Source: a virus (Duplodnaviria; Caudoviricetes). From it: a DNA stretch of 64,000 bases. Each line of letters opens with the position of its first letter. Position 1 is the first letter of the stretch. A program made the position numbers and the translations under genes. A model generated the notes under the pieces. The model worked only from the letters and a program-made list of their open reading frames with translations, was not told the origin of the DNA and ran no database searches. Shown piece after piece: positions 3,478 through 43,108 of the stretch. The DNA lies in the IMG/VR virus record IMGVR_UViG_2890388907_000005, positions 1-64,000 of that record, one strand, 5' to 3'.

Positions 3478-3698
3478 GAGAGCAGCGCCTCCAGCTCGCG
3501 AGCGATCTCGTGCAGATCGTGACCGACAGGCTCCCCTTCGCCGTCGCCAGGCATGGGGTGCACCCACACTGCGCGATCGCGGCAGCCGGGGCCGTTGCTG
3601 GCAACGATCAGGCTGGAGTCCCTGTCCAGCACCTTGGCCAGCGCCTCTTCGATGATCTCGACGCGCTGCCAGATCGGCATGTCAGCAGTCAGCGTCAT
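3474..3698 (-). CDS. hypothetical protein
   Basis: Overlapping operon gene. Confidence 0.6.
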   Translation of the reverse strand: MTLTADMPIWQRVEIIEEALAKVLDRDSSLIVASNGPGCRDRAVWVHPMPGDGEGEPVGHDLHEIARELEALLS

Positions 3699-4029
3699 TG
3701 GAGCCTGCGAAGTAGCTGGGGCGGCGCGCAAACTCGGCCGCGATGAAGTCTTCTGCGAAGAGCGGAAACTTGGCCTCCATCCGGCGCCGAAGGTTGCGCT
3801 GGCGCACCCGAGCCTTGGCCGATTGGCTCCAGCGCCTGATCGGCCGCTGTTCGATGCATTCCCATCCGACGGAATACCCGCTTCCCGGAACGAAGCTCTC
3901 CATGATCTCGGCCGGGACCGGGTGAGGCGTTTCGCACAAAACCGCGGCCAGTACCTTCGGCCCCGGCGGGGGCTCGTAGGGGTTTCTCCATGCCAGGGTG
4001 CAGCGCCATTTTGCGGATCGCTGGGTCAT
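3682..4029 (-). CDS. conserved phage hypothetical protein
   Basis: RRWS..AKARVRQRNLRRRMEAKFPLFAEDFI..E..RRPSYF motif. Confidence 0.7.
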   Translation of the reverse strand: MTQRSAKWRCTLAWRNPYEPPPGPKVLAAVLCETPHPVPAEIMESFVPGSGYSVGWECIEQRPIRRWSQSAKARVRQRNLRRRMEAKFPLFAEDFIAAEFARRPSYFAGSNDADC

Positions 4030-27431: not shown

Positions 27432-30400
27432 CTAGTTGTAGATGGCGGGGGCGAGGCCTTCACGCAGGCGTCTATCCAGCTTCTGGTTCAGGCTGACGCC
27501 GCCCTCGTTCCGTTCGGAGGATCGCTGTCTCGCCTGCACCGACTGCCGGATCGTGTCGGAGGTGATCGGGTATTCGGGCCAGCGGGCATTGAAATCGCGG
27601 ATCGCATCCAGAACCCCGTCCGGGATCGCGTCGCCCGCCCGGATCGCGTCGCCGGCGCGCCGGTGCAGCCGCTTCCTCTCCTCGATGACCTCGGCCTCCT
27701 TGTTCTTGAGACGCGAGTTGATGTCGTAGCGTTCGGCGATGCGCGCGGGGGTGAAGCCGTTGGCCTGCAGGAGCAAGCCCCAGGGGCTGACATCCTCGAC
27801 GATCAGGTCGCCGTTCCGGGTGGTGACGCCTTCGGCGGCATAGCGCCCGGCCCTGATGACGTCGCGGGCGAATTTCGGAACCAGCGCCTCGATGCCCCGC
27901 GCATAGTCGCCATCGGCAACATTCTGGGCGCCGCGGCCCATGCTGAACAGGATCCCGACCGTTGGACCAAGGGCTTCGTTGACATAGTGCTGCACCATGT
28001 CCTGCCCCTCAAGATCGCGGTCCGGGGGGCGGAACCAGAGGTTCGGCATGCCGATCCGCTCGGACAGGGCGATCCCGGTGACCTGCCCGGGAACCCCGTT
28101 CAGTGCGGCCCCCATGGCGAAGTTCCATGCCGCCGCGCCGGGGGTGTCCTTCTCGGCGAGCAGGGCGTCCTGCAGCCATTCCTCCAGGTCATCGGAGTCG
28201 CCGGGGAAGAACAGCGCCAGCAGCCCCATGACCAGGCCATAGCCCCAGGTGCCTGTGATGCCGGCATGCGCCATCATCGACAGGGTGACGCCCACCAGCT
28301 GCACCCGGGCTTCCCGCCTCTCCTCGGCACTGGCTCCATGCAGCGATTGGTGGGCGTCGCGGAACAGCCGGTAGAGCGAGTTGACGGTGAACTGCCTGAA
28401 CTGAAGGAACAGCTTCGGCCAATCCCCCTGCATCATCCTCGGACGATCGCTGTTCTGATAGCTGAAATGGATGCGCCAGGTCAGATCTGCGGCGCGGTCG
28501 ATGGCGAGATCATGGGGAACACCCTCGCCACGCGCGAGCCGGTAGGCGGCGAGATAGGTGATCTCGCGGTTGAACCTCTCGGCATGATGGAAACCCCAGC
28601 CGATCCGGCGCATCCATTTCTCACGCCAGGGATTGAACTCCACCCCCGATTCCGCGACCGCGGCGAGATCATGGGCCTGCGTCTTGTCGATGACGCCGCG
28701 CCGGTAGCCCTCCGCCATCGCCGCCTTTTCCGCGTCGCCGATGTCGGCGTTCTCGACGCTCCATTGATCCTTCCAGGAGGCCCCACGGCCGCGCCCGAAG
28801 TCCTTCGCGGCTTGGCCAAGCGCACCGACGATGTCGCCCAGAGAGGTGCGCGCGAAGGCCGCCCGCATCATCGCGGGACCGATCACCGTGGTCTGCGTGA
28901 GGTTGACGATGGCCGCGGCCGGCGAGACCCCCAGATACCAGACGAAAGCCAGAGAGGATGCGGCAGCCGACCAGCCGGAGCCGGTCGGGTTCATCGTCCA
29001 CTCCTTCCGCCTGTTCATCTCGTTGACCAGCGCGACCATGCGATTGCGGTCCGCGGAGACCGCGGCTTCGTCGAAGGCATCCTCGACGGCATCCTCGAGG
29101 TCGATGCCATGCTTGAGGCGCGCCAGCTGGTGGGCGCCGTGGAACATGTGGTGAGAGAAGGCGCGCAGGGCGTCCCTGTTCCAGCCTTCGCGCCCCTTGC
29201 GGTGGATCTTGGAGGTGCGGATCGACTGGTCGGGCAGCGTTTCCAGCCAGCGTTGCCAGATCATGTCCATGACCTCGGCCGACACATCCGCCCCGGCCAG
29301 CATCGTTTCGATGTCGGCGACGAAGGTCGGATCGACCTGATCGCGCAGCCCCCCGCGCTTCGCCAGAAGGCCATGCTCCACCCGCCCGGGGTGGGAGGCC
29401 TCCATTTCCTTGACATGGGCGGCCTGCTTCGCCTCGGTCTCGAAGCGCGAGAAGCTGATGACCTTGCCCTCGGTGTCCCGCACCGTCACGAAATAGTCGC
29501 CGAAGCGCGCCAGCGGGAAATACGGGCCCTTGAGCCGGTTGCTCTCGAACTGTCGGCGCAACTCCTTCATCCGTGCCCCGGAGCCCCAGCCGCCCCGCAG
29601 CTTCACCTTGTCCAGTCTCTCCTTCGCCTCGGCCTCGGCCGCGGCCCTCTCCTCGGCTTCAAGGCCCTCGTCGGCGATCCTGCGCATCTCGCGGCGATAC
29701 TCCTTCTCCGCGCGCTTCATCGCAATCTTCGTCGCCTTCTCGATGTTCTCGACGATGGCGCGCTCGAAGTCGTTGCCCAGCCGGTCGTATTCCCGCATCA
29801 CCTCGCCGTAGAGGGCACGATGCGCCTCGGGCAGGGCCTGATACATCTCCGAGATGCGGGCGTAGGCGCGGCGGCGGCGGGCGGCATACTCGACCTGATC
29901 CTTGGCCCAGAGCGGGGCGTCATCGCCGTAGCGGCTGATCGCATCCCGCGCCCGGTCCAGCCACGCGCTGTTCCAGGTATCGGGTCCGGTGGGATCGACG
30001 CCGGCCTGGGTGGAGCGATGCATGAGGTCCATCAGCGCCGCATTCGCGGCGGGATCCTTGGCGGCGAGATCATACCATTTCTCCGCGACGCCGGCGGAGC
30101 GGGAATGCCACTGGTTGCGCAGCGCATCCATCTCGTCCTTCACCCGCAGATAGCGGCGCGCCCCGTTCAGATGCTTCCCCATCTCCGCGAACAGTGGTCG
30201 CCCCGGCACCAGCGCGAGAAGCGACAGGTTCTCCGCCGCCATCCGGTCGGTGATGATCGAGGAGACCCAGCGGCTCACCGACTGCCGGTCGATCCGGCCC
30301 AGCGTCCCGCGGAACCGGTCCCGCGACGGGATCAGCCCCGCCCGTAGCTCGCTGGATCCCGAAGCATCGCCCGTATGATTTCCGCCGCCTCGGCGTCGTC

Positions 30401-33400
30401 CTTCATCAAGGACTCGAACTCGGACGGCGTCAGCGGATTTATAATTCGCGAGGTATCGGGCCTCGGACTCGGTGAGGGAGTCGAAGCCGTGGCCTGTGGC
30501 GGCGATGAAGTCTGGTTCGAGGTCGCCATGCCGCTCGCGCAATCTGGAAAGGGTTTCCGGGGACAACGTCAATGTGGCGCTATACTGCTTCCCGGTCAAG
30601 GCGACAGCCCCGATGACCCTTCCGCCGCCGGCTTCGATATGGGCGGCCAGCGTGGCGAAGGTGCCGCCTTGCGTCAGTGTATCGTCCAGCAGCAGGTAGT
30701 CCCGGCCAGGTTCCACCGGGCCATTGAAGACGGGTTGCGCGAAGATGCGGTCCAGGCCGCCCAGCGCGGTGCGGTGCGGGGCATTGGTCTGGCCGATCCC
30801 CGTCGCGGGCTCAAGGCCCAGCCGGGCGGCCAGAACCTCGGCCGCCGCCCGCGGGATCTTGTTGCGCCCCGTCGCTTCTTCGGCCACGACCGGGACGATC
30901 AGGGGCTTTGCATCGCCCAGGGCGGCCCTGACCTGCGCGACCAGATCGTCGGTCACCTTGTCGACGGCCAGGCGCGTCGCGGCGGCAAGATCGCCAGCCT
31001 TGGCGGCGGCATAGTCTGGGTGCGAGGAGACCGAGGCGAGTTCGCCGGCGATGATGACCCGGGGGATGGACACCCGCCCGCGCATCTCGGCGCCCATGTC
31101 GGCACCCGCGGCGCGCCGGCTGCCGCCCGGCCCCTGCGGCCCGCGTCCCCCGATCTCGCCCCGCGCGATTTGCTCCATCGTCATCGCCGCGGAGACGAAG
31201 CCCCGGCCGCGCAGCAGGTTTGCCACGGCCTCGACAAAGGCGCGGATGCGCGCCAGCGCCCGGCCCGCCGGTCCGGTGGCCTCACGGCCCTGCGCCCAGA
31301 GCCGATAGAGCTCGGCAACAGCTTCCTCGGCCTGCTTGGCGTCGGTGAGATCGGGATAGCGGGTCCGCACCCAGTCCATGATCTCGGCATCGGCGCGGGC
31401 GGCACGTTCCAGCGCCGCCCATTCTTCCGGCCGGAACAGCCCGAGCGGACGGTTCCAGAGCCGTTCGCTGCGCAGCGCATGGATGATTTCGTGGCGCATG
31501 ACCCCGCGGGCGTCATCCCCGGCGGCAACGTCGATGCGCCCGCCGCCGGCGGTTCTGAAGGTGCCCTTCACCTCGACGCCCGACGCGCCCAGCAGCAGGC
31601 GAACCGCGCGGACGGTCACCTTCTGGTCGAGCCCGTGCGCTTTGAGATCGGCGTTGAGATCGCGGGTGATCCCGGCGAGATCGGCCTCGGCGAGTTCGTC
31701 GCCTCCCGGGGTGGCGACGACGGGCCGGTCGCGCATCTCCGCGGCGGCTTCCGCCGCCTCATCGCCGCGCCTCATCTTCGACCCTTCGGAGATCTCCGGA
31801 GCCTCGAAGGCGCGTTCGTCATAGAGCGGGACGCCGCTTTCGCTCCTGACCTCCATGTAGGGGACGTCGCCTTGTTCGGTGGACACGAACCAGCCGGTGG
31901 CGAGCCAGCGATGGCCGGTGACCACCCGCTCCTCCCCATCGACATAGATCAGGGTGTCCAGTGGCGCGCCGGCGCGGAGCCAGCCCGGTGCCGGCACCGG
32001 GTTCGCCTCCATGTCGGCGAGGATGGCGTCGCGCTGCGCCTGCTTCTTCGCGAGGTCCCCGGCCTGCTGGAACGGTTCGTCCTGCGCGCGCTCCAGCCGC
32101 GCCAGCATCGCCCCGTTCTCGTCGATCAGCCTTTCGCTGTCGGAAACCGCGTCGGCGATCCGGCGGATGGCCGCCTCGATCGACGGCAGGGTCATCTTGC
32201 CGACCCGTCGCTCCGACTTGCGGATGATGTCGATCGACACGTCTTCGACGCGATAGGAATAGCTCGGCTTCTCCAGGCGGATGGCGAAGCCGTTCACCTC
32301 GACTGGAACGATCTCCGTGGAGCCTTTGCCCATGCGGGTGGCGGCTTTCGCCAAGAATTCCGCGATGGCGACCTCCGCCGGAGCGCGTTCATCGAACCTC
32401 TTGCCGTCTACGGTGGCGGAGAAGGTGCCTGCCGCCCGGATCCCGGCGACATGGGCGGCATCGTTGCGCAGCGGCGGCAGCGTCTTTTCGAGCGCCTCGG
32501 TCTGGGCGGTGATCTGGCGGATGCGGCGGGTGGCATCGGCGATGCCGGCGACATGGATGCGTTCGCGCGCCTGCAGCCTCTCCACCGCCTTGTTGAGCTT
32601 GGAGACCAGCATGAGGCGGGGGTCACCGGCGGCTTCGGACAAGGTGTCGGAGAGCGAGCCACCATCCATTGCCTCGGCATCGTCGGTGGCGTCGCCCTCG
32701 ATGACCCGCACCCCCTCCTTTGCCCTGAGAAAGGCCTTGATAAAGCGTTCCTTGATCGCCAGAACCTGCCAGCGCCGGCCATCAAGCCCCTCGGTCAGAT
32801 AGCGGTATTCCTCCACCGTGTTCCAGGTGTTGCCCTGCCGCTCGCCCCGGCCGTTGCGCTGTTCGAGATCGCCCGGCATCCATGGCGCATCGAGGTGGTG
32901 CATCGCCCGCAGGTATTTCTGCATGTTGACGCCGACACCCAGGGTCTTGGTCTGGCCGATCACGACGCGGATCTTCAAGGCGTTCATCGCGTCGGCGATG
33001 GCCTTCTTCTCCTCGGCGCTGACCCCGCCGGCGACGATGGCGATTTCCTCGCGCCTAACTCCCTTGGCAACCAGTTTCGCGACAATGTCGTCGGCAAGAT
33101 TGAACTTCCGCTTCTTCGTGCGGGTCTTGTTGCCGTCCGCATCGGTGCGCGTGGACACGGTTTCCGAGGAGTAGCCCTCGTCCATGAACAGCACCTGGGT
33201 CGCCATCGGCTGGTCCAGGTAGATCTGCGCGATCCTCCTGACCGCCCGGTTCGCTTTGGACAGCGGGTGGTCCTCGGCGTCGGGCTCCTGCAGGCGCGTA
33301 TCCATCGAGGCGCGGTTGGGGACGTTGTTGAAGACGATGGGGGAGTCCGGCCCACCGCCGCGCATGATCTCCCGCCGCTGCTTCCCGTTCGCCTGCTTGA

Positions 33401-36400
33401 AGGCGCGGGCGTAATAGATCACCTCGTCGAGGATGCGACGCTGGTCCCCGCCCATCGGCCCGATGTCGTTGATGATCTTCTTGTAGGGGCGGCCCTGCGG
33501 CTTTTCGGTGCGGCCGTTTTCGAGGAAGTCGCGATCAGCGTCGGTCAGATCCTTGCTGCGCATCGTCTTGCCGTCCGCCGTGGCGCGCGGCTTGAACTCC
33601 GGCATGTCGGAGGCGAAGACGATGTCCATGAACTGGCCGGCGAGCTGGCGCAGTTCGCTGACGTTGATGAAGGCGGCCAGCCGTTCGACATTCTCGAACT
33701 CGCCGGTCGAGGTGAGTTCGACGTCGCTGATCGTGTCCGCGAACGCCTTGAAGAAGCCGTCCCAGGTATCGACCTTGGCCGCCCGCATCACGTCGTCCAT
33801 GGCGTAGAACATCTGGTGGTAGATTTCCGCCAGGGTGTTCGTGATCGGGGTGCCGGTGAAGACGTGGACCCCGGTGCCATTGCGCTGCGATTTCACATAG
33901 GAGGTGAGGAAGCGCAGGGCCAACGACTTGTTGGAGGTGCCGAGGTTGAGCCCCTTGACCTGCATGCGCGTGGCCAGCGGCGGCTTCTTGAACTCGTGGG
34001 ATTCGTCGACAAGGATCATGTCGACGCCCAGTTTCTCGAAGCTGATGGCACCCTCGCGGCTCGCGCGCTGCGCCTGCTTCTCGATCTGGTTCAGCAGGTT
34101 CTTCCGGGCCTTGACCATCTCCTTCGCGGTGACGCCCAGCCGCATCTTCTTGATCTTCTCGGGATCGTCCATGTCCTCGACGCTGAGGCTGAACCCGTCA
34201 TCGGCCGCGGCGGCGATGGCTTCACGCTCGTAGGCCGCGATTTCCTCCTCGGCCATCACCATCAGCGTGTCGTGGGTCAGCGCCAGCCGATCCAGCAGCG
34301 AGTGGGGGATCACGATCAGATCCCAGTCGTCGGTTGCGATGCGCGCGAGTTCGGTGTCGATCGTCGCGGGGGAGAGGTTGTTGATGTAGAGGATCTTCGC
34401 GCCGGGATAGGTGTCCTGCGCTTCCGCGGCGACGGCGGCGGAGTTGGCGTTGTGAGCGATCAGCAGCGGCTTCCTCGCCAGCCCGAACCGCCGGCTTTCA
34501 ACCGCGATCCCGGTCATCGTGATCGTCTTGCCGGTGCCCACCTCATGGCCATAGATGCCGCGCTGGTTCAGGATGCCCCGCCAGATCGCGTTGGCCTGAT
34601 GCTGGCGCAGATTGAACGGCTCATCCCCTCGCGTCAGGGCCATGCCCGGGAATTCGAGGAAGCTGCCGTCGATCTGCGGCGTCGCCGTGTTGTTCATCGC
34701 CTCGTTGTAGGCGCGCTCCGCCTCGACGCGGCGCTCGGGCTCGGACCAGAGCCATGCCCCGAATTTCTGACGGAGATCCGCGGCCTTCTGGTTCGCGGTC
34801 TCCGTTGCCCTGGTATCCTTGTAGGTGCCGTCCTGGTCCTCATAGGTGACGGTGATGGTCTGGGTGTTCAGCGTCGCCTCGAAGAACCGGGCCAGCGAAA
34901 GCCCGGTGCCTCGCCGACCCGGGAGAGGCGCGCCGGTGATGTCGGAGGCGCCGGGCATATGTGCGACGCGGTCGGAGAATTCGACGCGCCATCCGGTCAT
35001 CGCCCGGGTCAGCTTCACATCGTTCTCGTCGGGGTTGGCCAGCCCGAGGGTTTCGATGATGAAGGCGCGGTTGATCCCGGCATCGACCCAGTCGGCGCCG
35101 AACCGCGCCTCGATCTGGAAATAGGGCACATCCGGCGGCTGCACCGCTTCGAGCGCGGCGACAGAAGCTGCCATGTCCTCGCCGCCGTCCAGCGCCTCGC
35201 GCGCCGCCGCCAGCTTCACCCTGACGTTGCCGGCGAGATAGCGGTCGCTGGTCTCGTAGCCGCCGCCCGGCGTCCGGTAGATCGCCTTGCTGTCGAGCAG
35301 ATCGGCGATGACCGTCTCCGCCGGCTGCTTCGCCAGCTCCGCGACGCGCTCGATGTCGAGAATGGCACTCTCGTTCCGCGCGATCACGAAGGCTTCGCGG
35401 ATCGACGGGTTGTCCAGCTTCTGTGCAGCCCGGACCACCGCCTTGGTCATGATCGCGGCGGGCGTTCCATCGCCGTTTTCGAGTGCTGCGACGAGGCCTG
35501 CGTTCGGATCGCGCAGCTTCTTCAGGACGGATAGGGCGAAGCTGTCGCCGATCGGACCATGCGCCTTGACGAAGCCGTCATAGGCCAGCTTCAGCGTCTT
35601 GCGTTTCGCCTCCGCATCGGCGGCGCCGGCCCGGTCGGCTTCCATCACGGCGTCGGCGGCGCGCCGCACCTCGATCAGTCGCCCGATCTCGGCCATCCGC
35701 TTCGCGGTCTCCGTCGCGCTCTTGGTGGCGATCTTGGCGACATCCTCGAGCCGGGCCATGTTGTCGCCCTGGACCTGATAGAGATTGCCGTCATCGCCGC
35801 GGGTGATGGAGAGGATGCGATCCCGGGTGGTCGTGGCGACGAAGCGGGGTTCCTTTCCGCGCCGCGCCGGCTGATAGGCATCGGCCGGCAGCGCCGATGC
35901 GATGGCCTTGAGACGCGCGGCGAGATCCGCCGGCCGGTTCACGATCATGCCGGCCTTGCCATAGGTGGTGCCGTGGCCGGTGGTCAGTTCGCCCAGCACA
36001 TGCGAGGGGTTGTCCAGGAAATACTGGTTGACGTGGATCTCCTGCCCCGCGGGCGAGGTCCACGGCACCGATTGGACCCACCTCTCGCCTTCGGCGCTCG
36101 CCTTCGGTTCCGCGCGCTTGCGCAGGATGATGATGTCGGTGACGACGCGGGTGCCCGCATATTTCTCGAACGCGCCGCTCGGCAGCCGGTAGGCGGCGAC
36201 CAGCTCCGCATTCTTGGCGAGGTGGTTGCGGATCACCCGGTTCTTCTGGCCGTCCATGGAGAAGGCCGAGGTGATGCCGACGACAAGCCCGCCCGCGCGC
36301 ACCTGATCCAGCGCCTTGAGGAAGAAATAGTCGTGCAGGCTCGGGGTCAGCCGGTCGTAGCGGCGATCCGGCACCTTGATGTTGGCGAAGGGCCAGTTGC

Positions 36401-39400
36401 CGATGACCAGATCGTAGAAGCCATCGGCGACGCGGCTCTTTTCATAGCCCATGACGCGGATGTTGGCCCGCGGATAGAGCAGCTTCGCGATGCCGCCGGT
36501 GGTCTTCTCCAACTCGATCCCGGTGAGTTGCGAGTTCTGTTCCAGATCCCGCGGCATCATGCCGAAGAAGTTGCCGACACCCATGGCGGGTTCGAGGACG
36601 CGGCCGCCCTTGAAGCCCATCGCGCGGACCGCATCCCAGATCGCCTCGACGGTCGGCGGGTCGGTGTAGTGGGCGTTGATGATCGACTCTTGCGCGCTGG
36701 CCCAGGCATCCTTGCCCAGATGCTCGCGCAGCCAGGCGTCTTCCTCCTTCCAGCCCTCCTTGGGGCGCGGATAGGCCCATGAGCCTTGAAACAGTTCCTG
36801 GCCGAAGCTGCCCCAGCCGATGAAGCCGGCCATGGCATCCATTTCCTCGGGGCTCGGCTCGCGGCCGGCATCGGAGACCGCCTCGAATACCTCCATCGCC
36901 CGGCGGTTCTTGGCGAACCGCGCTTTCGGGCCGCCCGCGAACAGCGAATCCGGGTCGGTGATGTGATAGTTCAGGCGCCCGGGGGCAGAGGGCTGGTCGC
37001 TTCCGGGTCGAACATCGCCCAGTCCTTCACCGCTTCCTGCCGCGCGTCGGACGGGTTCATCCCGCTTTTCAGGTAGTCCCGCTCCGCGTCCAGCATCCTT
37101 TCGACGAGAACGTGCGCGAGGGCGGTCACCGCGCCCCACTCCTTCATCGCCTGATGGAGCCCCGGGTTCTGCGCCTCCCAGGTCTCGATCATCCACTTCT
37201 CCAGTGGCGTCCCCGGCCCGATGTTGTGCGGATGGTCCATCAGGGTCCGGCTCTCCACCTTCGCCCACTTCGCCAGTGCCTGCGCCGCTGCCTTCTCCAT
37301 CGGGGGTCGTTCCAGCTTGAGGTTGCGTCGCAACGGTATCAGGTTCCGCCGGCTCGGGCGAGACGGGGAATTCCCCGGCCGGCGTGTCCAGCGCCTCAAG
37401 GTTCTGGATCGCGGCGCGCACCGCCGCGGTGTCATCCATGCCGTCGATGGAGATCTCGTTGTCCTCCATCATGTCCCGCGCACCATTATACCAGGACCGC
37501 AGGTAGGGGCGCAGCTTGGTGGGGGTGGTGTCGAGATCGGCGGCGACGGCCCGGGCGAAGTCGGCGAAGCGCCGGGCGCCCGCCTCGATGTGGAACACGG
37601 CGAGTTCGGCACCGATGGCGAGGATTTCGGGGTCGATGCCCGAATTGATCTGGCTGCCCAGCTTGGCCTTCAGCCGCTCGCGCAACTCGGCGGCGCGATC
37701 CGCGGATACCAGCTTGTTCGAGGCGCCATAGGCCGGCGCCGGTTCGGCTGCGGCCGGCGCGGCCGGCGCGGGCGCGGGCTGATCGGGCGCGGCGGCAGCC
37801 GGCACACCGCGCTGCGCGGCACCCTCGGCATAGCCTGCGCGCCAGTCATCGGCGATGGGATCGCCTTCCAGCCATGCCGGCGGCTCGCGCATCGCACCGG
37901 CACGGCCAGCTTTCCGGCCGGCCTCGATCGCGTCGCGGCGCTTCTGTTCACGCCGGTCATCCAGCACCGGCGGCGCGGCCGGCGCGGGCGCGGGTGCGGC
38001 AGGCTTCGGACGGGCCGGCGCGGGCGCGGGCCGGGCAGGTTTGCCGGCCTCCGCAGCGATGCGGTCCTCCTCGACATAGGCGGCTTGCAACACGGCGTCG
38101 GCATGCTTGCGGGCGAAGATGAACCCGCCTTCCTTCTCGTCCCATTTCAGGCTGACGCCCGGCACCTGCGGCGGCCGATCCTTCGGGAGACCGCGCAGCA
38201 CCGCGGCCTTGGCCCGCACGTTCTCCACCTCGACACCCTCATAGGGATAGGTCGGGGCTTCGCTCGTGGCCGCGGCCTTGCTCGGGCCGCCGCCCGCCAG
38301 CCAGGTCTTGAAGCCGGGCACATCCATGGCGGTGATGCCGCCCAGCCGCCGGCGCCCCTTCCCATCGGAGAACCCGCCCAGGTAGGCGATCTCCGCTTCG
38401 GACGCGGAGGCGAAGCCCAGCATCACCTTGTGTTCGTCGAAGGCGCCGGTTTCGGCATCCTTCTGGTCGATGATCCAGACCTTATCGCTGGCCTCGTCCG
38501 GTCCCATGTAGAAGTCGACGTGGTCGCCATCGGCGCCAGTCGTGCCGCGGATGTAGCCGTAGTCCGCAGGCATGGTGACCTCCCATGCCGCACCATCCGC
38601 CCCGACACCGCTGCGCGTCCCGCCCTTCGGGTTTTCGATGGAGAGGTCGAACCCTTTCCAGCGGGCATGCCCCTTGCGGTAGTTGCCGGCCTCCTTCTGC
38701 GCCTCGGTCGGGGCTGGATCCGCGGCCTTTGCGGCCTCGGCGACCGCGGACTCACCGCCCCCGGTCAGTGGACCTGCAGGCTCGCCGGTGCCAGCTGCGT
38801 CAACCAGACCATCTTGAGGATCGGCGCCACCGGGTCGGTTCCCTGGATCGTCCGCTCCGATCGCAGCGCCTTGCGCGCCAGCCGCGCTTCCTCCGGGGTT
38901 ATCATCCCCGCGGCGAGCAGCGCCTTGATCGACTGCCGCGCCGTCATCCACATTGGCAGATCGAGCATTTCCTTCCCCCATATCGACCGGTGCGACCCGA
39001 TCCATTTCCCGCATCGCCCCGCGCGTCGCAGACGCGATTGCATCCCGGTCCAGCCCCTCTGTGTCGATCCGCCTGTCCTGATCGGATGCACCGCGGCCGG
39101 CCCGCACGATGACGCGGCCCGGGCGGATCAGAACCTCCCGGCCATCCAACAGCATGTCGTCGGAACTCTTGCCCCCCTCGGCGATGGCGAGGAAGCGACC
39201 CCATTCCTTCCGGCGCTTCTCCCGCGACGCCGTCTCGGCCTCGGAAACCTCGCGCCCCCCCAGCATGTCGGGCTGCATCCGCTGCTCGGGCGGAGTCGTG
39301 ATCGGGGCGACCGGGTTGCGGGCCGCCTTGGCCGGTGCCGCGGGCGGCGCGGGCATGTCCTCCGGAGGCGGCACCTTCGCCGCGAGCCGGGCGCGCAGAT

Positions 39401-41309
39401 CCAGCATGGTCTTCGACGGCTTCTTCGCCCGGCGGATCGCTTCATCGACGGTGGCGAGGCGCGAAGCGGCCTGCTCGGGCGACAGCGCGTCGATGTCGGC
39501 GGCTGGATCGCGCGGCGTCTCCGCTCGCCCCTTCGGTGCGGCCTGCTGCGCCAAAGCGCCCGGCGCCGGCACCTGCGGCGCAGGGCCAGGCGCGTCGGCG
39601 CCCGGTGCGGGCTTCGCCTTCTTCGCCGCCTCCGCGGCGGCATCGGCACGGCGCGCCGCATTCAGGGAGATGTCGAAGGCCTCCGGGGTCAGATCGACCT
39701 CGCGCCCCTCGATCCTGACGATGGCGCTGCCGCCGTCCTCACGCTGGAAGACGCCGTCGACGATCGAGCCTTTCTCGTCCATCAGCCGCACCGCCGCCCC
39801 GGGCTTCATGTCGGGGAAGGCCGGAACCGGTTCCACCTCGGGAACGGGGGTCAGATCGGGGGCAACGGTTGCGGCGCGGCCGATCGGGCCGGCCGGAGCG
39901 GCATCGGGCGGCAGCGGCGCCGCACCGATGTCGAAGACGTCGGACCCCGCTTCCTGGGGAGGGGCGGAAGCGGGGTCCATCCCGCCGGCGGTCCCGGCGC
40001 CTGCAGGATTCGGTGAGGGGCGCTCGCGCAGCGTCGGATCGCTGACCGGGCCAGCGCCGAAAATCGTGCCGCCGCGGTTCGGCGCGGGAAGGGCGAGCCG
40101 CGCCGGGGGCGCCTCGGCATCCCGCTGGCGCCCCTGAGCCGCCCCGACAACCGCGCCTGGCCCGGCACCGCCCATGGCGCCGAGGGCGAAGTCGGCGAAG
40201 GTGCCTTCGGTCAGAGAGGCGTCGTCTCCGGTGACGGTCTGCGCGCCGGCGCGCGCCGCCATCGACTCCGCCACCTCCTGGGCACCCTCCTCGATCCCCG
40301 AAAGACCGCCGATTCCCAAGGCGCGGGCGGCAACCCCGCGCGATGCCAGCGCGGAGACGGGCTTGTTCAGGATGCGCTCGGTGACGGCGCCGCCGATGGC
40401 GGCCGGAACCGCCTGAGCCACCCCGCCGGCGGCTTCGGCCATGGTGGTGACCCGCGAGATCGCATCTTCGACGGAGGCGCCCGACGCGATGGCGTCGCGG
40501 AAGACCGCGGAGCCTTGTTCCAGTGCGGCGCGGCCCTCGGAGGTGCCCGCAAGCGCCTCGACATGCTCGCGGCCGGCATCCATGCCTTCCCCGGCGCCCA
40601 TGGCGGCGCCCGCGGCCATAGCCGCAGCCGGGCTCTTGGTGGCCAGCGCCACCGCAACCATGGGCAGGAAGGAACCGGTGGCCTGGGCGGCATGCAGGGC
40701 GACCCCGCGCAGCGAGGGGTCTTCGCCCAGCGTCCAGGTGGAGGGCTTGGTAATGTCGCCGTCGATGCCGGTCCCGGCCAGCGCGGCCTTACCCCGATCC
40801 GAGACACCTTCGGCCAAGGCGTCGCCGCCGCTCTGCACCCATTCCCCGGCCCGCTTCGCCAGCTCACGCGCCTTGGTCTGATGCGGCAGCAGCTGGCCGC
40901 CCGATCCGACGAGTTCGGCCCCCAGCCCGAGTCCCTTGATCGCCGCGCCGGCGCCCTGCAGGGCGCCCCCGGCGACCTGACGGCCCAGATCCCCGACAAG
41001 GCTCCCCTCGTCGGTCGCCGGAGGCGCCTCGGATGCGGCGCGCGGGTAGAGTTCGTCGGCGAGATCATAGGCCCGGTTCAGCACCGGCGCCGGAAGGACA
41101 TCCTCCAGCGTCTCGCCCGCATCCAGCCGCCCCCGCAGCGCCGCGGCTGCGCGTTCAGCATCGACGCCGGCCTCCTCGATCGCCATGAGGACGTTGGCGG
41201 GGATTTGCGCCGACGAGGCCAAGGCCTCCACGCGCTGCCGCCTGATCGCCGGGTCGGAGGCTTCAGGAATAGAACCCGCGGGGCCGAAGCCGAACGGAGT
41301 GGTGGCCAT
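27432..41309 (-). CDS. giant DarB-like polyvalent virion protein (PPase-like, N6-adenine MTase, SNF2 helicase, zincin, PRTase, PLxRFG)
   Basis: DYGYIRGTTGADGDHVD/FDEHKVMLGF; VLEPAMGVGNF and IGNWPF; HEVGTGKT, DESH, EQRNGRGERQGN; HEIIH; LLDDTLTQGGT; YFPLARFG. Confidence 0.92.
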   Translation of the reverse strand: MATTPFGFGPAGSIPEASDPAIRRQRVEALASSAQIPANVLMAIEEAGVDAERAAAALRGRLDAGETLEDVLPAPVLNRAYDLADELYPRAASEAPPATDEGSLVGDLGRQVAGGALQGAGAAIKGLGLGAELVGSGGQLLPHQTKARELAKRAGEWVQSGGDALAEGVSDRGKAALAGTGIDGDITKPSTWTLGEDPSLRGVALHAAQATGSFLPMVAVALATKSPAAAMAAGAAMGAGEGMDAGREHVEALAGTSEGRAALEQGSAVFRDAIASGASVEDAISRVTTMAEAAGGVAQAVPAAIGGAVTERILNKPVSALASRGVAARALGIGGLSGIEEGAQEVAESMAARAGAQTVTGDDASLTEGTFADFALGAMGGAGPGAVVGAAQGRQRDAEAPPARLALPAPNRGGTIFGAGPVSDPTLRERPSPNPAGAGTAGGMDPASAPPQEAGSDVFDIGAAPLPPDAAPAGPIGRAATVAPDLTPVPEVEPVPAFPDMKPGAAVRLMDEKGSIVDGVFQREDGGSAIVRIEGREVDLTPEAFDISLNAARRADAAAEAAKKAKPAPGADAPGPAPQVPAPGALAQQAAPKGRAETPRDPAADIDALSPEQAASRLATVDEAIRRAKKPSKTMLDLRARLAAKVPPPEDMPAPPAAPAKAARNPVAPITTPPEQRMQPDMLGGREVSEAETASREKRRKEWGRFLAIAEGGKSSDDMLLDGREVLIRPGRVIVRAGRGASDQDRRIDTEGLDRDAIASATRGAMREMDRVAPVDMGEGNARSANVDDGAAVDQGAARRGDDNPGGSAAGAQGAAIGADDPGNRPGGADPQDGLVDAAGTGEPAGPLTGGGESAVAEAAKAADPAPTEAQKEAGNYRKGHARWKGFDLSIENPKGGTRSGVGADGAAWEVTMPADYGYIRGTTGADGDHVDFYMGPDEASDKVWIIDQKDAETGAFDEHKVMLGFASASEAEIAYLGGFSDGKGRRRLGGITAMDVPGFKTWLAGGGPSKAAATSEAPTYPYEGVEVENVRAKAAVLRGLPKDRPPQVPGVSLKWDEKEGGFIFARKHADAVLQAAYVEEDRIAAEAGKPARPAPAPARPKPAAPAPAPAAPPVLDDRREQKRRDAIEAGRKAGRAGAMREPPAWLEGDPIADDWRAGYAEGAAQRGVPAAAAPDQPAPAPAAPAAAEPAPAYGASNKLVSADRAAELRERLKAKLGSQINSGIDPEILAIGAELAVFHIEAGARRFADFARAVAADLDTTPTKLRPYLRSWYNGARDMMEDNEISIDGMDDTAAVRAAIQNLEALDTPAGEFPVSPEPAEPDTVATQPQAGTTPDGEGSGAGTGEVGEGGEPDPDGPSAQHRAGDATGEVDDRDLGGAEPGAPSGDEGVGRGDRPRARSRRKDAGRGAGLPEKRDEPVRRAAGSGEGLGDVRPGSDQPSAPGRLNYHITDPDSLFAGGPKARFAKNRRAMEVFEAVSDAGREPSPEEMDAMAGFIGWGSFGQELFQGSWAYPRPKEGWKEEDAWLREHLGKDAWASAQESIINAHYTDPPTVEAIWDAVRAMGFKGGRVLEPAMGVGNFFGMMPRDLEQNSQLTGIELEKTTGGIAKLLYPRANIRVMGYEKSRVADGFYDLVIGNWPFANIKVPDRRYDRLTPSLHDYFFLKALDQVRAGGLVVGITSAFSMDGQKNRVIRNHLAKNAELVAAYRLPSGAFEKYAGTRVVTDIIILRKRAEPKASAEGERWVQSVPWTSPAGQEIHVNQYFLDNPSHVLGELTTGHGTTYGKAGMIVNRPADLAARLKAIASALPADAYQPARRGKEPRFVATTTRDRILSITRGDDGNLYQVQGDNMARLEDVAKIATKSATETAKRMAEIGRLIEVRRAADAVMEADRAGAADAEAKRKTLKLAYDGFVKAHGPIGDSFALSVLKKLRDPNAGLVAALENGDGTPAAIMTKAVVRAAQKLDNPSIREAFVIARNESAILDIERVAELAKQPAETVIADLLDSKAIYRTPGGGYETSDRYLAGNVRVKLAAAREALDGGEDMAASVAALEAVQPPDVPYFQIEARFGADWVDAGINRAFIIETLGLANPDENDVKLTRAMTGWRVEFSDRVAHMPGASDITGAPLPGRRGTGLSLARFFEATLNTQTITVTYEDQDGTYKDTRATETANQKAADLRQKFGAWLWSEPERRVEAERAYNEAMNNTATPQIDGSFLEFPGMALTRGDEPFNLRQHQANAIWRGILNQRGIYGHEVGTGKTITMTGIAVESRRFGLARKPLLIAHNANSAAVAAEAQDTYPGAKILYINNLSPATIDTELARIATDDWDLIVIPHSLLDRLALTHDTLMVMAEEEIAAYEREAIAAAADDGFSLSVEDMDDPEKIKKMRLGVTAKEMVKARKNLLNQIEKQAQRASREGAISFEKLGVDMILVDESHEFKKPPLATRMQVKGLNLGTSNKSLALRFLTSYVKSQRNGTGVHVFTGTPITNTLAEIYHQMFYAMDDVMRAAKVDTWDGFFKAFADTISDVELTSTGEFENVERLAAFINVSELRQLAGQFMDIVFASDMPEFKPRATADGKTMRSKDLTDADRDFLENGRTEKPQGRPYKKIINDIGPMGGDQRRILDEVIYYARAFKQANGKQRREIMRGGGPDSPIVFNNVPNRASMDTRLQEPDAEDHPLSKANRAVRRIAQIYLDQPMATQVLFMDEGYSSETVSTRTDADGNKTRTKKRKFNLADDIVAKLVAKGVRREEIAIVAGGVSAEEKKAIADAMNALKIRVVIGQTKTLGVGVNMQKYLRAMHHLDAPWMPGDLEQRNGRGERQGNTWNTVEEYRYLTEGLDGRRWQVLAIKERFIKAFLRAKEGVRVIEGDATDDAEAMDGGSLSDTLSEAAGDPRLMLVSKLNKAVERLQARERIHVAGIADATRRIRQITAQTEALEKTLPPLRNDAAHVAGIRAAGTFSATVDGKRFDERAPAEVAIAEFLAKAATRMGKGSTEIVPVEVNGFAIRLEKPSYSYRVEDVSIDIIRKSERRVGKMTLPSIEAAIRRIADAVSDSERLIDENGAMLARLERAQDEPFQQAGDLAKKQAQRDAILADMEANPVPAPGWLRAGAPLDTLIYVDGEERVVTGHRWLATGWFVSTEQGDVPYMEVRSESGVPLYDERAFEAPEISEGSKMRRGDEAAEAAAEMRDRPVVATPGGDELAEADLAGITRDLNADLKAHGLDQKVTVRAVRLLLGASGVEVKGTFRTAGGGRIDVAAGDDARGVMRHEIIHALRSERLWNRPLGLFRPEEWAALERAARADAEIMDWVRTRYPDLTDAKQAEEAVAELYRLWAQGREATGPAGRALARIRAFVEAVANLLRGRGFVSAAMTMEQIARGEIGGRGPQGPGGSRRAAGADMGAEMRGRVSIPRVIIAGELASVSSHPDYAAAKAGDLAAATRLAVDKVTDDLVAQVRAALGDAKPLIVPVVAEEATGRNKIPRAAAEVLAARLGLEPATGIGQTNAPHRTALGGLDRIFAQPVFNGPVEPGRDYLLLDDTLTQGGTFATLAAHIEAGGGRVIGAVALTGKQYSATLTLSPETLSRLRERHGDLEPDFIAATGHGFDSLTESEARYLANYKSADAVRVRVLDEGRRRGGGNHTGDASGSSELRAGLIPSRDRFRGTLGRIDRQSVSRWVSSIITDRMAAENLSLLALVPGRPLFAEMGKHLNGARRYLRVKDEMDALRNQWHSRSAGVAEKWYDLAAKDPAANAALMDLMHRSTQAGVDPTGPDTWNSAWLDRARDAISRYGDDAPLWAKDQVEYAARRRRAYARISEMYQALPEAHRALYGEVMREYDRLGNDFERAIVENIEKATKIAMKRAEKEYRREMRRIADEGLEAEERAAAEAEAKERLDKVKLRGGWGSGARMKELRRQFESNRLKGPYFPLARFGDYFVTVRDTEGKVISFSRFETEAKQAAHVKEMEASHPGRVEHGLLAKRGGLRDQVDPTFVADIETMLAGADVSAEVMDMIWQRWLETLPDQSIRTSKIHRKGREGWNRDALRAFSHHMFHGAHQLARLKHGIDLEDAVEDAFDEAAVSADRNRMVALVNEMNRRKEWTMNPTGSGWSAAASSLAFVWYLGVSPAAAIVNLTQTTVIGPAMMRAAFARTSLGDIVGALGQAAKDFGRGRGASWKDQWSVENADIGDAEKAAMAEGYRRGVIDKTQAHDLAAVAESGVEFNPWREKWMRRIGWGFHHAERFNREITYLAAYRLARGEGVPHDLAIDRAADLTWRIHFSYQNSDRPRMMQGDWPKLFLQFRQFTVNSLYRLFRDAHQSLHGASAEERREARVQLVGVTLSMMAHAGITGTWGYGLVMGLLALFFPGDSDDLEEWLQDALLAEKDTPGAAAWNFAMGAALNGVPGQVTGIALSERIGMPNLWFRPPDRDLEGQDMVQHYVNEALGPTVGILFSMGRGAQNVADGDYARGIEALVPKFARDVIRAGRYAAEGVTTRNGDLIVEDVSPWGLLLQANGFTPARIAERYDINSRLKNKEAEVIEERKRLHRRAGDAIRAGDAIPDGVLDAIRDFNARWPEYPITSDTIRQSVQARQRSSERNEGGVSLNQKLDRRLREGLAPAIYN
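30332..30529 (-). CDS. possible nested +1-frame peptide after the PRTase domain
   Basis: C-terminal part LTPSEFESLMKDDAEAAEIIRAMLR is protein-like with GC-rich third positions; start unclear. Confidence 0.35.
   Translation of the reverse strand: MATSNQTSSPPQATASTPSPSPRPDTSRIINPLTPSEFESLMKDDAEAAEIIRAMLRDPASYGRG
36971..37300 (-). CDS. nested +1-frame gene (109 aa, TnpV-like pattern)
   Basis: GC3 bias lies in the nested frame while the host frame is low-complexity; stop sits at the MTase domain boundary. Confidence 0.65.
   Translation of the reverse strand: MEKAAAQALAKWAKVESRTLMDHPHNIGPGTPLEKWMIETWEAQNPGLHQAMKEWGAVTALAHVLVERMLDAERDYLKSGMNPSDARQEAVKDWAMFDPEATSPLPPGA
38765..38968 (-). CDS. nested +1-frame gene (67 aa)
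   Basis: GGGGGAAGGAA-ATG; MLDLPMWMTARQSIKALLAAGMITPEEA...; stop just before the PPase-like domain. Confidence 0.6.
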   Translation of the reverse strand: MLDLPMWMTARQSIKALLAAGMITPEEARLARKALRSERTIQGTDPVAPILKMVWLTQLAPASLQVH

Positions 41310-41335
41310 AGCAAAACCTCACGGGTCTGGACTAT

Positions 41336-41358
41336 GGCTGACACATCCTATGGCAGCC
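41336..41358 (-). promoter_or_regulatory. GGA-loop leader hairpin (giant protein)
   Basis: GGCUGcCAU-AGGAU-GUGuCAGCC. Confidence 0.6.
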
Positions 41359-41401
41359 CGTTTCCCCATGAATACCTGATCCGGTGGGGACGCGGCAACA
41401 A

Positions 41402-43108
41402 TCAGTTCGGCCGGTAGAGGACCGGGGGGGGCGCGGTTGTGGAGGCGCCACCCCCGCCCGTCAGTGCCTCGCGCACCGCGCCGACACTCCGCTGCGCTTG
41501 ACCGATGGCTTCCTCCATCGACACGGTCGGCCGCCCGTCGAGTCCCTTGCTGTTTTCGACGATGTCCTGGGCGAGGGACAGGATCTGCTTCTCCTCTGCC
41601 GCCCGGGCGCCCTCGGCCTTGTCGCGCGCGCCCATCGCCGCGGAGGCAGCGGCCGACTGGCGTTCATAGTAGATCTCGAAGGCCCGCGACGGTTCCAGCA
41701 GGCCAAGCCCCAGTTTCAGCACATCGTCGGCGCCCTGATAGACCTGCTCATAGGTCTGGCCGGTCTTCGTGTTGCGGAACACGAGACGCGCCGCCGCTGG
41801 GTTTCCGGCCTTGTCATAGGTCCAGCCGGATTGATCTTCGACCAGCTCGACGCCATCGGGGAAGTATCCGGCGCGGTTGTAGGCGCGGATCACATGCTCG
41901 CCGAAGCGTTCGACATCGCCCAGCGTTGCCGCCGCCGCCGCCGCCGCCCAGTCTTTCATGCCCTCGCGCGCCTCGACGGTGTCCATGAACTCCATGAACT
42001 TCTGGGCACGGTCGAAATCCCCGCGGCTCAACATCCCCTCGATGATCTTGGGGGCCGAGACGGTCATGTAGTGGTCGAGGGCGAAGGCGCCGGCGCGCTC
42101 GTATTGGGCCGGGCCGGCCTTGCCGCCCGGGGCCACACCGGCGGCCTTGATGCCGGCCTGCGCCGCCTCCGCGACCGGCGCAGGGGCGGCGTTGACCTGT
42201 TCCACCGCATCCGCGGCCACCTTCTTCACCGTGGCGGGCGCGGCGGCCGGAACCTTCGACCGCAAAGGGGCATGCGCGGGCGGCGCGGGCGGCGTCGCCG
42301 GGGCGACGGGCTGCGGTGCGATCCCCAGTGCTTCGCGGGCGATCTCGCGCTGGCGGGCGGGCAGATCGGGGTTGGTGGCCCAGCCGCGCCGCATCCGTTC
42401 CTCCTCGGCCGCGATCCGCGCCTCGAATTCGGCGCGGCGCGGATCTGCCTGGGACGGCGCCGCTGCCTCCGGCTTGGGGAGGTATCGCACCCCGGCCGGC
42501 CCCTGCAGGCCCAGTTCGTCCGCGATGGCCCGGCTGGGCGCGGGCGCAACCGGGGTGCCGTCAGGCAGATAGCGGATGCCGCCATTGTAGCCGCTGGGGC
42601 GCGGTGCCGCCTGGGGCAGCTTTTCCGCGGCGGCGCGGGTGGGTCCGGGCCGGGGCTGGGCCGGACGGAGCGACTCCGCGGGCATCGTGCGCTGCATCAC
42701 CTGGGCCGCGGCATCCATCTGCGGCCGCGGAACGACGATGCTGGGGTCGATGCCCAGTTCCTGCGCGACCCCGCGGGCTGGCGAGACGGCCGGTTCCCCC
42801 CCCTGCGTCGAGGTGGTGGTTTCGCCTGCGCCCGTGCCGCCGCCGGCCTCCGCTGCCGCGTCGGCGAAGAGGTCGCGGTAGAAATCGTCATCTTCACGGG
42901 CGCGGGTCCAGTCGGCGTCGTCGCGGTCATAGGCCCGCATCTGGCGATCATGGCGTTCCTGCGCCCGCGCCGCCTCGGCCTCGGTCAGCTTGTCCAGGCG
43001 CGCCTGACGCTCCTTGTCGTCCTTCCGGTCCTGCCATGCATGCTTGATCTCGCGGCCCCTGAAAAAGCCGTCCGCGAACCCCGAGATGCCGTAGGCGACA
43101 CTGGCCAT
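41402..43108 (-). CDS. putative internal virion/ejection protein
   Basis: GISGFADGFFRG N-terminus, coiled coil, Ala/Pro-rich; lies before the giant protein. Confidence 0.7.
   Translation of the reverse strand: MASVAYGISGFADGFFRGREIKHAWQDRKDDKERQARLDKLTEAEAARAQERHDRQMRAYDRDDADWTRAREDDDFYRDLFADAAAEAGGGTGAGETTTSTQGGEPAVSPARGVAQELGIDPSIVVPRPQMDAAAQVMQRTMPAESLRPAQPRPGPTRAAAEKLPQAAPRPSGYNGGIRYLPDGTPVAPAPSRAIADELGLQGPAGVRYLPKPEAAAPSQADPRRAEFEARIAAEEERMRRGWATNPDLPARQREIAREALGIAPQPVAPATPPAPPAHAPLRSKVPAAAPATVKKVAADAVEQVNAAPAPVAEAAQAGIKAAGVAPGGKAGPAQYERAGAFALDHYMTVSAPKIIEGMLSRGDFDRAQKFMEFMDTVEAREGMKDWAAAAAAATLGDVERFGEHVIRAYNRAGYFPDGVELVEDQSGWTYDKAGNPAAARLVFRNTKTGQTYEQVYQGADDVLKLGLGLLEPSRAFEIYYERQSAAASAAMGARDKAEGARAAEEKQILSLAQDIVENSKGLDGRPTVSMEEAIGQAQRSVGAVREALTGGGGASTTAPPPVLYRPN

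Follow-up and report, generated by a model that had tools for sequence, protein, structure and literature searches.

A small gene of 67 codons, here called gene A, lies out of frame within a giant DarB-like gene in the first 64,000 nucleotides (nt) of the virus record IMGVR_UViG_2890388907_000005 (Duplodnaviria; Caudoviricetes); this whole stretch is referred to as the window. Gene A is probably a real, separately translated gene whose +1 reading frame overprints an inter-domain linker of the giant protein. It carries a coding signature of its own and has homologues with conserved start and stop; in its relatives the nested frame is under purifying selection and the host frame is selected to stay open. 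The features concerned are given below in window coordinates, with lengths in amino acids (aa) and the Shine-Dalgarno sequence abbreviated to SD.

27432–41309, minus strand: gene for the giant DarB-like / PLxRFG polyvalent protein, 4625 aa, main frame without a stop.
38765–38968, minus strand: nested gene A, 67 codons plus TGA (ATG 38968–38966, TGA 38767–38765), +1 frame.
38969–38979, minus strand: SD-like run GGGGGAAGGAA, abutting the gene A ATG, as read from the sequence.
38766–38969, minus strand: G/A/D/P-rich linker, codons 781–848 of the giant protein, the off-frame reading of gene A.
38298–38705, minus strand: InPase domain (PF18823), residues 869–1004 of the giant protein (Pfam E 1.1e-52 / 2.2e-54).

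Gene A is fully contained in 27432–41309 on the same strand and is out of frame with the giant open reading frame (ORF), the offset being +1 [(41309 − 38968) mod 3 = 1]. The preliminary description of this DNA had placed a 67-aa +1 ORF at 38765–38968 with a purine-rich SD directly ahead of its ATG; sequence and translation confirm the ORF, and the SD corresponds to GGGGGAAGGAA at 38979–38969. This run was called SD-like by eye only, without an energy calculation. Its G-run lies 6 nt before the ATG and its AAGGA core 1 nt before it, and the 3′ end of the 16S rRNA of the source genome has the usual CCTCC. The stop codon is 60 nt upstream of the InPase domain, and runs of five G are found on both sides of the ORF. 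The low complexity of the main frame, also pointed out in that description, is real: over gene A the residues G, A, D and P make up 69% of the main frame vs 38% of the whole giant protein. No in-frame ATG, GTG or TTG is seen in the InPase region after the gene A stop. Since the downstream domains thus lack a start of their own, the host frame must be read through, which supports the earlier view that the giant gene reads through the small gene as a low-complexity linker.

The length of the gene A ORF is by itself ordinary at 71% GC; GC content around 38–40 kb of the window is 0.71, and 53 ORFs of at least 40 aa overlap positions 35000–42000. GC per main-frame codon position is 0.88/0.63/0.48 at 38969–38790 vs 0.70/0.50/0.84 in the whole giant gene, and this flip places the signal typical of third-position GC (GC3) in the +1 frame. 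With a codon model trained on 1071 long ORFs from the same genome, the 67-codon ORF has coding log-odds of +39.8 nats and the main frame over the same stretch −36.9. Positive log-odds are obtained for two of the 31 same-strand alternative-frame ORFs of at least 50 aa, gene A and the ORF at 36971 (gene B, below). Correspondingly, the +1 frame is favoured by more than 10 nats at two sites only in the 13.9-kb gene (38999–38879 and 37349–37109). A genome-wide control over 2.08 Mb of long ORFs gave 48 comparable frame-preference runs, 32 of them at ORF 5′ ends (overlap with an upstream gene), two in the giant gene and 14 elsewhere inside ORFs. The maximum margins of the two giant-gene runs are 24.5 and 32.7, those of 13 of the 14 other internal runs 14.7–21.6 and that of the remaining one 37.8.

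Homologues of gene A exist. A phmmer search of 1.84 billion representatives returned five small proteins of 60–70 aa that match end-to-end (E 2.2e-8 to 6.7e-4), and a profile search of a 5.8-billion-protein set returned seven homologue clusters, all of 60–70 aa and all metagenomic. Aligned members are 35–47% identical to the gene A protein with start, length and stop kept; the starts align within 0–4 residues in five of six sequences, and one homologue (P0006) is without the motif at the N-terminus. Invariant positions of the alignment are M1, Q58, L59 and a final H67 with the stop behind it, a G-[LM]-I-T..E-A stretch is widely present in the family and every member has the C-terminus ...VW[LM].QL.P.....H then stop. 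The preliminary description would have given the gene up if there were neither homologues in this frame nor an initiation signal; homologues were found, and gene A stands. Apart from a 1770-aa repeat protein considered below, no long protein contains an in-frame gene A module at E ≤ 0.001 (phmmer). Single-sequence searches of 61 related genomes matched the own genome only, and neither peptide patterns run against the genome and viral contigs nor tblastn against plasmids and phages gave a relative of gene A; single-sequence tblastn is too insensitive here, as it missed the homologue-bearing Roseicitreum plasmid described next. A degenerate DNA pattern had no match in the genome and viral contigs. 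A wider DNA pattern matched 13 stretches of metagenome contigs, which were rejected as their translations gave no gene A relative.

The same nesting is found in other replicons. Scanning of InPase-bearing giant genes identified a nested +1 homologue with 40% identity in the giant gene of Roseicitreum antarcticum plasmid pRA01 [hidden Markov model (HMM) E 1.6e-17 within one genome; one of 400 other genomes of the window's family]. It starts in the context AGAAGGA-n5-ATG, ends in ...NQYVH-TGA and shows the flip in codon-position GC (0.88/0.62/0.34), with GC3 of 0.88 in the nested gene vs 0.66 in the host gene. The top matches of a 9-sequence HMM in small databases, in Vibrio phage VvAW1 (E 0.017), Erwinia phage Pavtok (E 0.2) and Serratia phage Parlo (E 0.46), are +1 ORFs ending in His-stop; all of these distant nested members (VvAW1, the Erwinia trio Pavtok, PEp14 and Stean, and Parlo) end in ..[LM]H-stop. 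When compared with the gene A family by hhalign, the Erwinia trio has P 6.8e-5 (probability 63%) and VvAW1 P 2.8e-4 (41%), with alignments that reach the very C-terminus. These distant links are weak on score and gain weight because placement, length and DNA detail are shared. The nested start is A-ATG-C, read as Asn-Ala in the main frame, in five of six contexts (the Roseicitreum start differs), and the nested stop is CAC-TGA or CAC-TAA, read as ...Ala/Pro-Leu, in all six. An SD-like run and ATG stand at the aligned position in all seven genomes for which DNA is available: purine runs lie 5–10 nt before the ATG in Roseicitreum, VvAW1, the three Erwinia phages and Parlo, and GGAGG is found 9 nt ahead of the nested ATG in each of Pavtok, PEp14 and Stean. 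A G/A/D/P-type linker overlies the homologues too. Nested ORFs are annotated in none of the 13 giant genes inspected (16 loci, some of them duplicate records or near-identical genes). The gene A family was not found in the giant genes of Pseudomonas phages USP_25 and Itty13, of Massilia and Brucella plasmids, or of phages POI1126, Atu_ph08, PBC5, LASTA and Bcep22.

Selection on the two frames can be compared in the Erwinia trio, whose nested ORFs share 64–74% identity. The ratio of non-synonymous to synonymous substitution rates (dN/dS) is 0.33–0.59 in the nested frame and 0.72–1.33 in the main frame (three pairs each); a flanking main-frame control gives 0.01 (one usable pair). These ratios, together with the retention of start, length and stop in the homologues, point to purifying selection on the nested frame. 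For the host frame, synonymous codons of the nested gene were resampled from the host gene's own usage. The probability that the main frame stays open under this scheme is 0.0003 in VvAW1, 0.053 in Parlo, 0.063 in Roseicitreum and 0.11–0.13 in the Erwinia phages, and T at third codon positions (T3) in VvAW1 is 0.32 in the host gene and 0.02 in the nested gene, indicating that the host frame is maintained as well. As judged from these sequences, both frames are under selection, the nested one for its protein and the host one for openness. Elsewhere in the giant gene of the Erwinia trio, at nt ~3633–3750, changes are concentrated at main-frame position 1 (0.24–0.42 vs 0.12–0.33 at position 3); the pattern is like that of the nested genes and may mark another hidden ORF.

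The second site of +1 preference corresponds to a further nested gene.

36971–37300, minus strand: nested gene B, 109 codons from the ATG at 37300, +1 frame, upstream of the methylase region.

Gene A and this gene had been said to share their frame and a linker-before-domain position, and they do; the ORF 36971–37435 is also +1 by arithmetic. In tblastn, gene B matches Pseudomonas phages USP_25/18 inside and +1 to the giant coding sequence, and +1 ORFs are found at the same position in 10 further giant genes. A better-conserved family at this position (21 phage records) is characterized by an MNL[NQ][NS]W start, a conserved ATG and GGAG-type SDs; it lies +1 directly before the methylase in Atu_ph08, PBC5, POI1126, VvAW1, a Microcystis phage, Pavtok, PEp14, Stean, LASTA, SopranoGao and Itty13. 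In Bcep22, Parlo, USP_25, the Massilia and Roseicitreum plasmids and the window, the position is taken by different +1 ORFs. None of the ORFs at the gene B position is annotated in the inspected records. Family dN/dS is 0.23–0.29 in the nested frame and 1.0–2.2 in the main frame, and the probability of an open main frame is 0.001–0.2 in six lineages. On this comparison, nested +1 genes in linkers appear to be a recurrent feature of these giant genes. A search of ESM Atlas with gene B gave only leads below 0.9, one of them a cluster with TnpV on 11% of members.

Two records of this group deserve mention. In Sinorhizobium phage PBC5 (AF448724.1, 2752–9309), as deposited, gene B continues the frame of the N-terminal portion of the giant gene, which terminates at the gene B stop (orf33, 2185 aa); the methylase part is a separate orf23. 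It is because of the orf33 entry that phrog_938 (‘endolysin’, 2185 positions) matches gene B at its end. The PBC5 arrangement results either from an indel introduced in sequencing or from a gene that is naturally split. In Pseudomonas phage Itty13 (MW460249.1, 4905–16163) three long ‘hypothetical proteins’ are annotated antisense to the gene B-bearing DarB-like gene; they look like shadow ORFs called instead of the giant gene.

For gene A the following arrangement is proposed. The long late mRNA would carry an internal SD and ATG, and ribosomes starting at this ATG would make a 67-aa three-helix protein ending in the conserved C-terminal His. Ribosomes on the giant ORF would read the same 204 nt in frame 0 as a disordered Gly/Ala/Asp/Pro linker placed between the N-terminal region and the InPase domain. 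Because such a linker would tolerate almost any sequence, the nested frame would set the codon pattern, and the sole constraint on the host frame would be to stay open, via avoidance of T at nested third positions.

The helices that had been claimed for gene A are present in its AlphaFold2 model (6-sequence alignment), which has three of them at residues 10–20, 25–36 and 48–59 [predicted local distance difference test (pLDDT) 86.3, predicted template modelling score (pTM) 0.71]. Nothing in Pfam or PHROGs matches gene A above threshold; SHOCT (PF09851, 12.9 bits vs a cut-off of 27) and CtsR_C (PF17727, 15.4 vs 23.8) both fall short. The likeness to SHOCT consists in a helix-turn-helix around G-M-I-T-P-E-E-A, a stretch resembling the SHOCT motif, with the Pfam match at residues 14–27; unlike SHOCT members, gene A is below the Pfam cut-off and the match spans one fifth of the protein. 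This SHOCT-like turn may serve as a hint to function, and it is the sole one. Foldseek with the gene A model found no match in PDB and BFVD at E ≤ 0.001, the best VIA-align Z-score of 4.5 is within the noise for helical models and ESM Atlas gave no usable match. From its placement, the gene A product could tentatively be regarded as assisting the giant virion protein, be it in folding, in packaging or in controlling its activity.

Several observations weigh against a separately translated gene A. The best SD core (AAGGA) is 1 nt from the ATG, and normal spacing applies to the G-run only. The ATG is preceded by 53 codons of open +1 frame, in which no stop would block ribosomes arriving by a frameshift. 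For the window's own sequence the probability that the main frame is open by chance is 0.67, and the selection tests therefore rest on relatives, the dN/dS values coming from Erwinia members that are tied to gene A by weak profile scores, placement and the C-terminus. The seven metagenomic clusters are known only from contigs of 506–2281 nt. The 1770-aa repeat protein also matches gene A (E 2e-7 over 35 residues) and is put aside here, being taken as repeat-driven. Codon-signature runs of the same kind occur at 14 other internal sites in long ORFs of this genome. Lastly, internal initiation and the existence of a gene A protein are what we infer from sequence. As regards the 14 runs themselves, each has the alternative frame ahead of the main frame by >10 nats across 210 nt or more, the strongest being that of C9 (37.8 nats, 17 windows); fusion of ORFs, frameshifting or additional nested genes could account for them.

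Were gene A fed by frameshifting, ribosomes slipping +1 upstream of 38968 would end at the TGA at 38765 and produce an isoform of ~780 aa with the A module at its C-terminus, and no free 67-aa protein would be made. An SD-like run acts as a frameshift stimulator in prfB. The G-rich run ahead of gene A could do the same, the open 53 codons would permit it and the deposited form of PBC5, in which the N-terminal part runs in frame to the gene B stop, would be a parallel. However, the junction in gene A is marked by a conserved ATG and SD-like run, aligned in all seven genomes, and not by a programmed frameshift site: inspection of six aligned contexts by eye, with no formal motif search, revealed no in-frame stop or common slippery heptamer. 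The composition of the upstream +1 frame looks off-frame, and the homologues are small proteins of 60–70 aa with nearly coincident starts. In gene B, stops lie directly upstream of the family ATG in Pavtok and VvAW1, and the PBC5 sequence dates from 2001 and may contain an indel error. Frameshift entry to gene A is unlikely.

It is also improbable that gene A is a fossil, that is a small gene that once stood between two genes, was read through after their fusion and is now untranslated with its signature undecayed. Such a history would account for a nested frame with the genome-typical codon pattern over a host frame that looks secondary, and the difference in domain order between the window and Roseicitreum would be expected after shuffling. 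A dead frame would, however, gather stops and indels, and the intact state of gene A therefore counts against it: start, SD-like run, length and stop are retained at 35–47% identity and in the more distant nested members, and nested dN/dS in the Erwinia phages is below 1 with main-frame values of about 1.

A third reading holds that translation itself matters and not the peptide, either by keeping the 14-kb message occupied by ribosomes, for example as a protection from Rho termination or decay, or by tuning translation of the giant ORF. At least two internal SD-ATG sites are spaced along this very long ORF, and fold and family searches suggest no function for the peptide. A purely cis role would not conserve the peptide, so the invariant Q-L...H-stop, the nested dN/dS of 0.33–0.59 and the confident predicted fold speak against it and make it very unlikely. 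That gene A is a chance ORF in GC-rich DNA or the product of paired assembly indels is extremely unlikely. In favour of this view, many long ORFs occur in alternative frames here, gene A has a G5 run on either side and the genome is a draft of 38 contigs. Against it, the nested stop comes before the downstream G5 run, ruling that run out as the exit point; homologues that share both ends and the frame make gene A more than chance, and the same nested layout in independent complete records (the Roseicitreum plasmid, deposited as complete, and complete phage genomes) shows that it is not an assembly artefact.

With gene A taken as an overprinted gene, one part of the earlier interpretation holds and another does not. 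A genuine second coding frame is upheld; the idea that domains are acquired as cassettes with their own upstream partner gene, which would make gene A the partner of the pyrophosphatase-like InPase domain, is not. When seven other InPase loci were scanned with the family HMM (four over ±4 kb, two over ±1.5 kb), only Roseicitreum was positive, and there ~226 codons separate the homologue from InPase: its end falls at main-frame residue 879 and the first InPase residue is 1105, in a gene with a different domain order. No InPase was seen in VvAW1 (3477 aa scanned) or in the first 3000 aa of Pavtok, despite their distant gene A members. A role as InPase partner gene is thus not supported, the family being not regularly upstream of InPase and present without it in the parts of VvAW1 and Pavtok scanned. 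Gene A may be a captured gene that predates the fusion, or may have arisen within the linker. A 50-residue block with 68% identity follows InPase in the window (residues 1028–1077) and precedes it in Roseicitreum (1002–1050); judging from its swapped place, the two giant genes have undergone a shuffling of domains relative to each other.

The host gene combines InPase with ResIII/Helicase_C (residues ~2232–2825) and LPD39 (3686–3888, E 8.6e-52) in one ORF of 4625 aa in a phage context. Its DNA matches genes annotated as “DarB-like antirestriction” or “PLxRFG domain-containing protein” in Klebsiella, Serratia and Ochrobactrum phages and in Brucella and Massilia plasmids, and upstream of it on the same strand are genes for terminase, portal, major head and internal virion proteins. 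On the strength of domains, DNA matches and upstream structural genes, it is the gene for the polyvalent virion protein of a Bcep22/PBC5-like prophage, a phage group described in PMC6630229 and PMC9144972. A third +1 ORF of 65 aa (30332–30529, minus strand) lies directly upstream of LPD39. Its log-odds are −0.004 per codon (third of the 31, borderline) and the frame-scan signal at 30479 is marginal; its C-terminal half has a protein-like look. Opposite the giant gene, antisense ORFs of 1719 codons (30375–35534, plus strand) and 931 codons (37221–40016, plus strand) are shadow frames of the kind usual in GC-rich DNA, a further sign that the length of an ORF means little in this sequence.

Genes nested in another gene of the same strand are regarded as a rarity in bacteria and large phages and are dropped by annotation pipelines. 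One parallel in kind is Rz1, which is encoded in the +1 frame of Rz. Gene A resembles Rz1 in Rz of lambda in being a complete small phage late gene that has an apparent start of its own and lies, out of frame, within a larger gene on the same strand. The partner proteins Rz and Rz1 are both structured, similar in size and of established function, whereas the host frame of gene A is a disordered linker of a 4625-aa multidomain protein that harbours at least two nested genes. In Bacillus subtilis, the small protein ComS is encoded out of frame inside srfAB; comS is a lineage-specific regulator in a chromosomal non-ribosomal peptide synthetase gene. Gene A likewise is a small out-of-frame gene in a giant multidomain gene, but unlike comS it recurs in the giant genes of phages and plasmids from several bacterial orders.

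Gene A and its host also resemble overprinted genes such as phiX174 E in D in having two coding frames, one with the stronger codon signature. Overprinting in small viruses is usually put down to pressure on genome size; here the 14-kb gene is roomy and the overlap is specific to linkers. Overprinted genes are covered by general reviews (PMC8227390, PMC6195259). ‘Embedded class’ spanins are described for the Bcep22-like phage JC1 (PMC9144972), and the available parts of the Atu_ph08 and JC1 papers (PMC6630229, PMC9144972) mention embedding for Rz/Rz1 only. The giant protein itself is like the DarB-like/PLxRFG polyvalent proteins in having InPase, methylase, SNF2-type helicase and LPD domains in a phage structural module (Iyer et al. 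2017, PMC5512222). Nested genes are not part of the architecture described in that paper, which has no mention of ‘frameshift’, ‘overlapping’ or ‘linker’ and uses ‘nested’ for a hairpin fold only. A full-text literature search, with supplements and the Bcep22 genome paper outside its reach, did not turn up any account of genes nested in DarB-like or polyvalent genes. The embedded out-of-frame gene is thus known as a kind; what appear to be new are its seat in the linkers of a giant polyvalent gene and its recurrence there.

The comparative evidence for gene A is unusually clean: start and stop are both conserved, selection acts in a frame-specific manner and the pressure to keep the host frame open can be measured. 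The layout recurs in phages of Alpha- and Gammaproteobacteria, and gene B is found also in Burkholderia and Microcystis phages, which adds unannotated proteins to a phage group of interest for therapy and antirestriction. A flip of codon signature inside low-complexity linkers of giant genes provides a search rule for more such genes, and the system lends itself to studying the mechanism of internal initiation within a heavily translated 14-kb ORF. The finding also bears on whether gene fusions swallow intervening genes without killing them. We further put forward, as a speculation that is more doubtful than the existence of gene A, that DarB-like genes in Bcep22/PBC5-like podophages and in related plasmids harbour an unannotated but conserved set of +1 genes in their linkers (family A, family B before the methylase and possibly more). 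The small helical proteins made from these would supply the accessory factors that are missing for the giant ejected protein, acting as chaperones, packaging adaptors or in-cell inhibitors like the separate Dar/Ddr genes in phage P1. If this is true, overprinted genes would in general find a harbour in the disordered linkers of polyvalent proteins.

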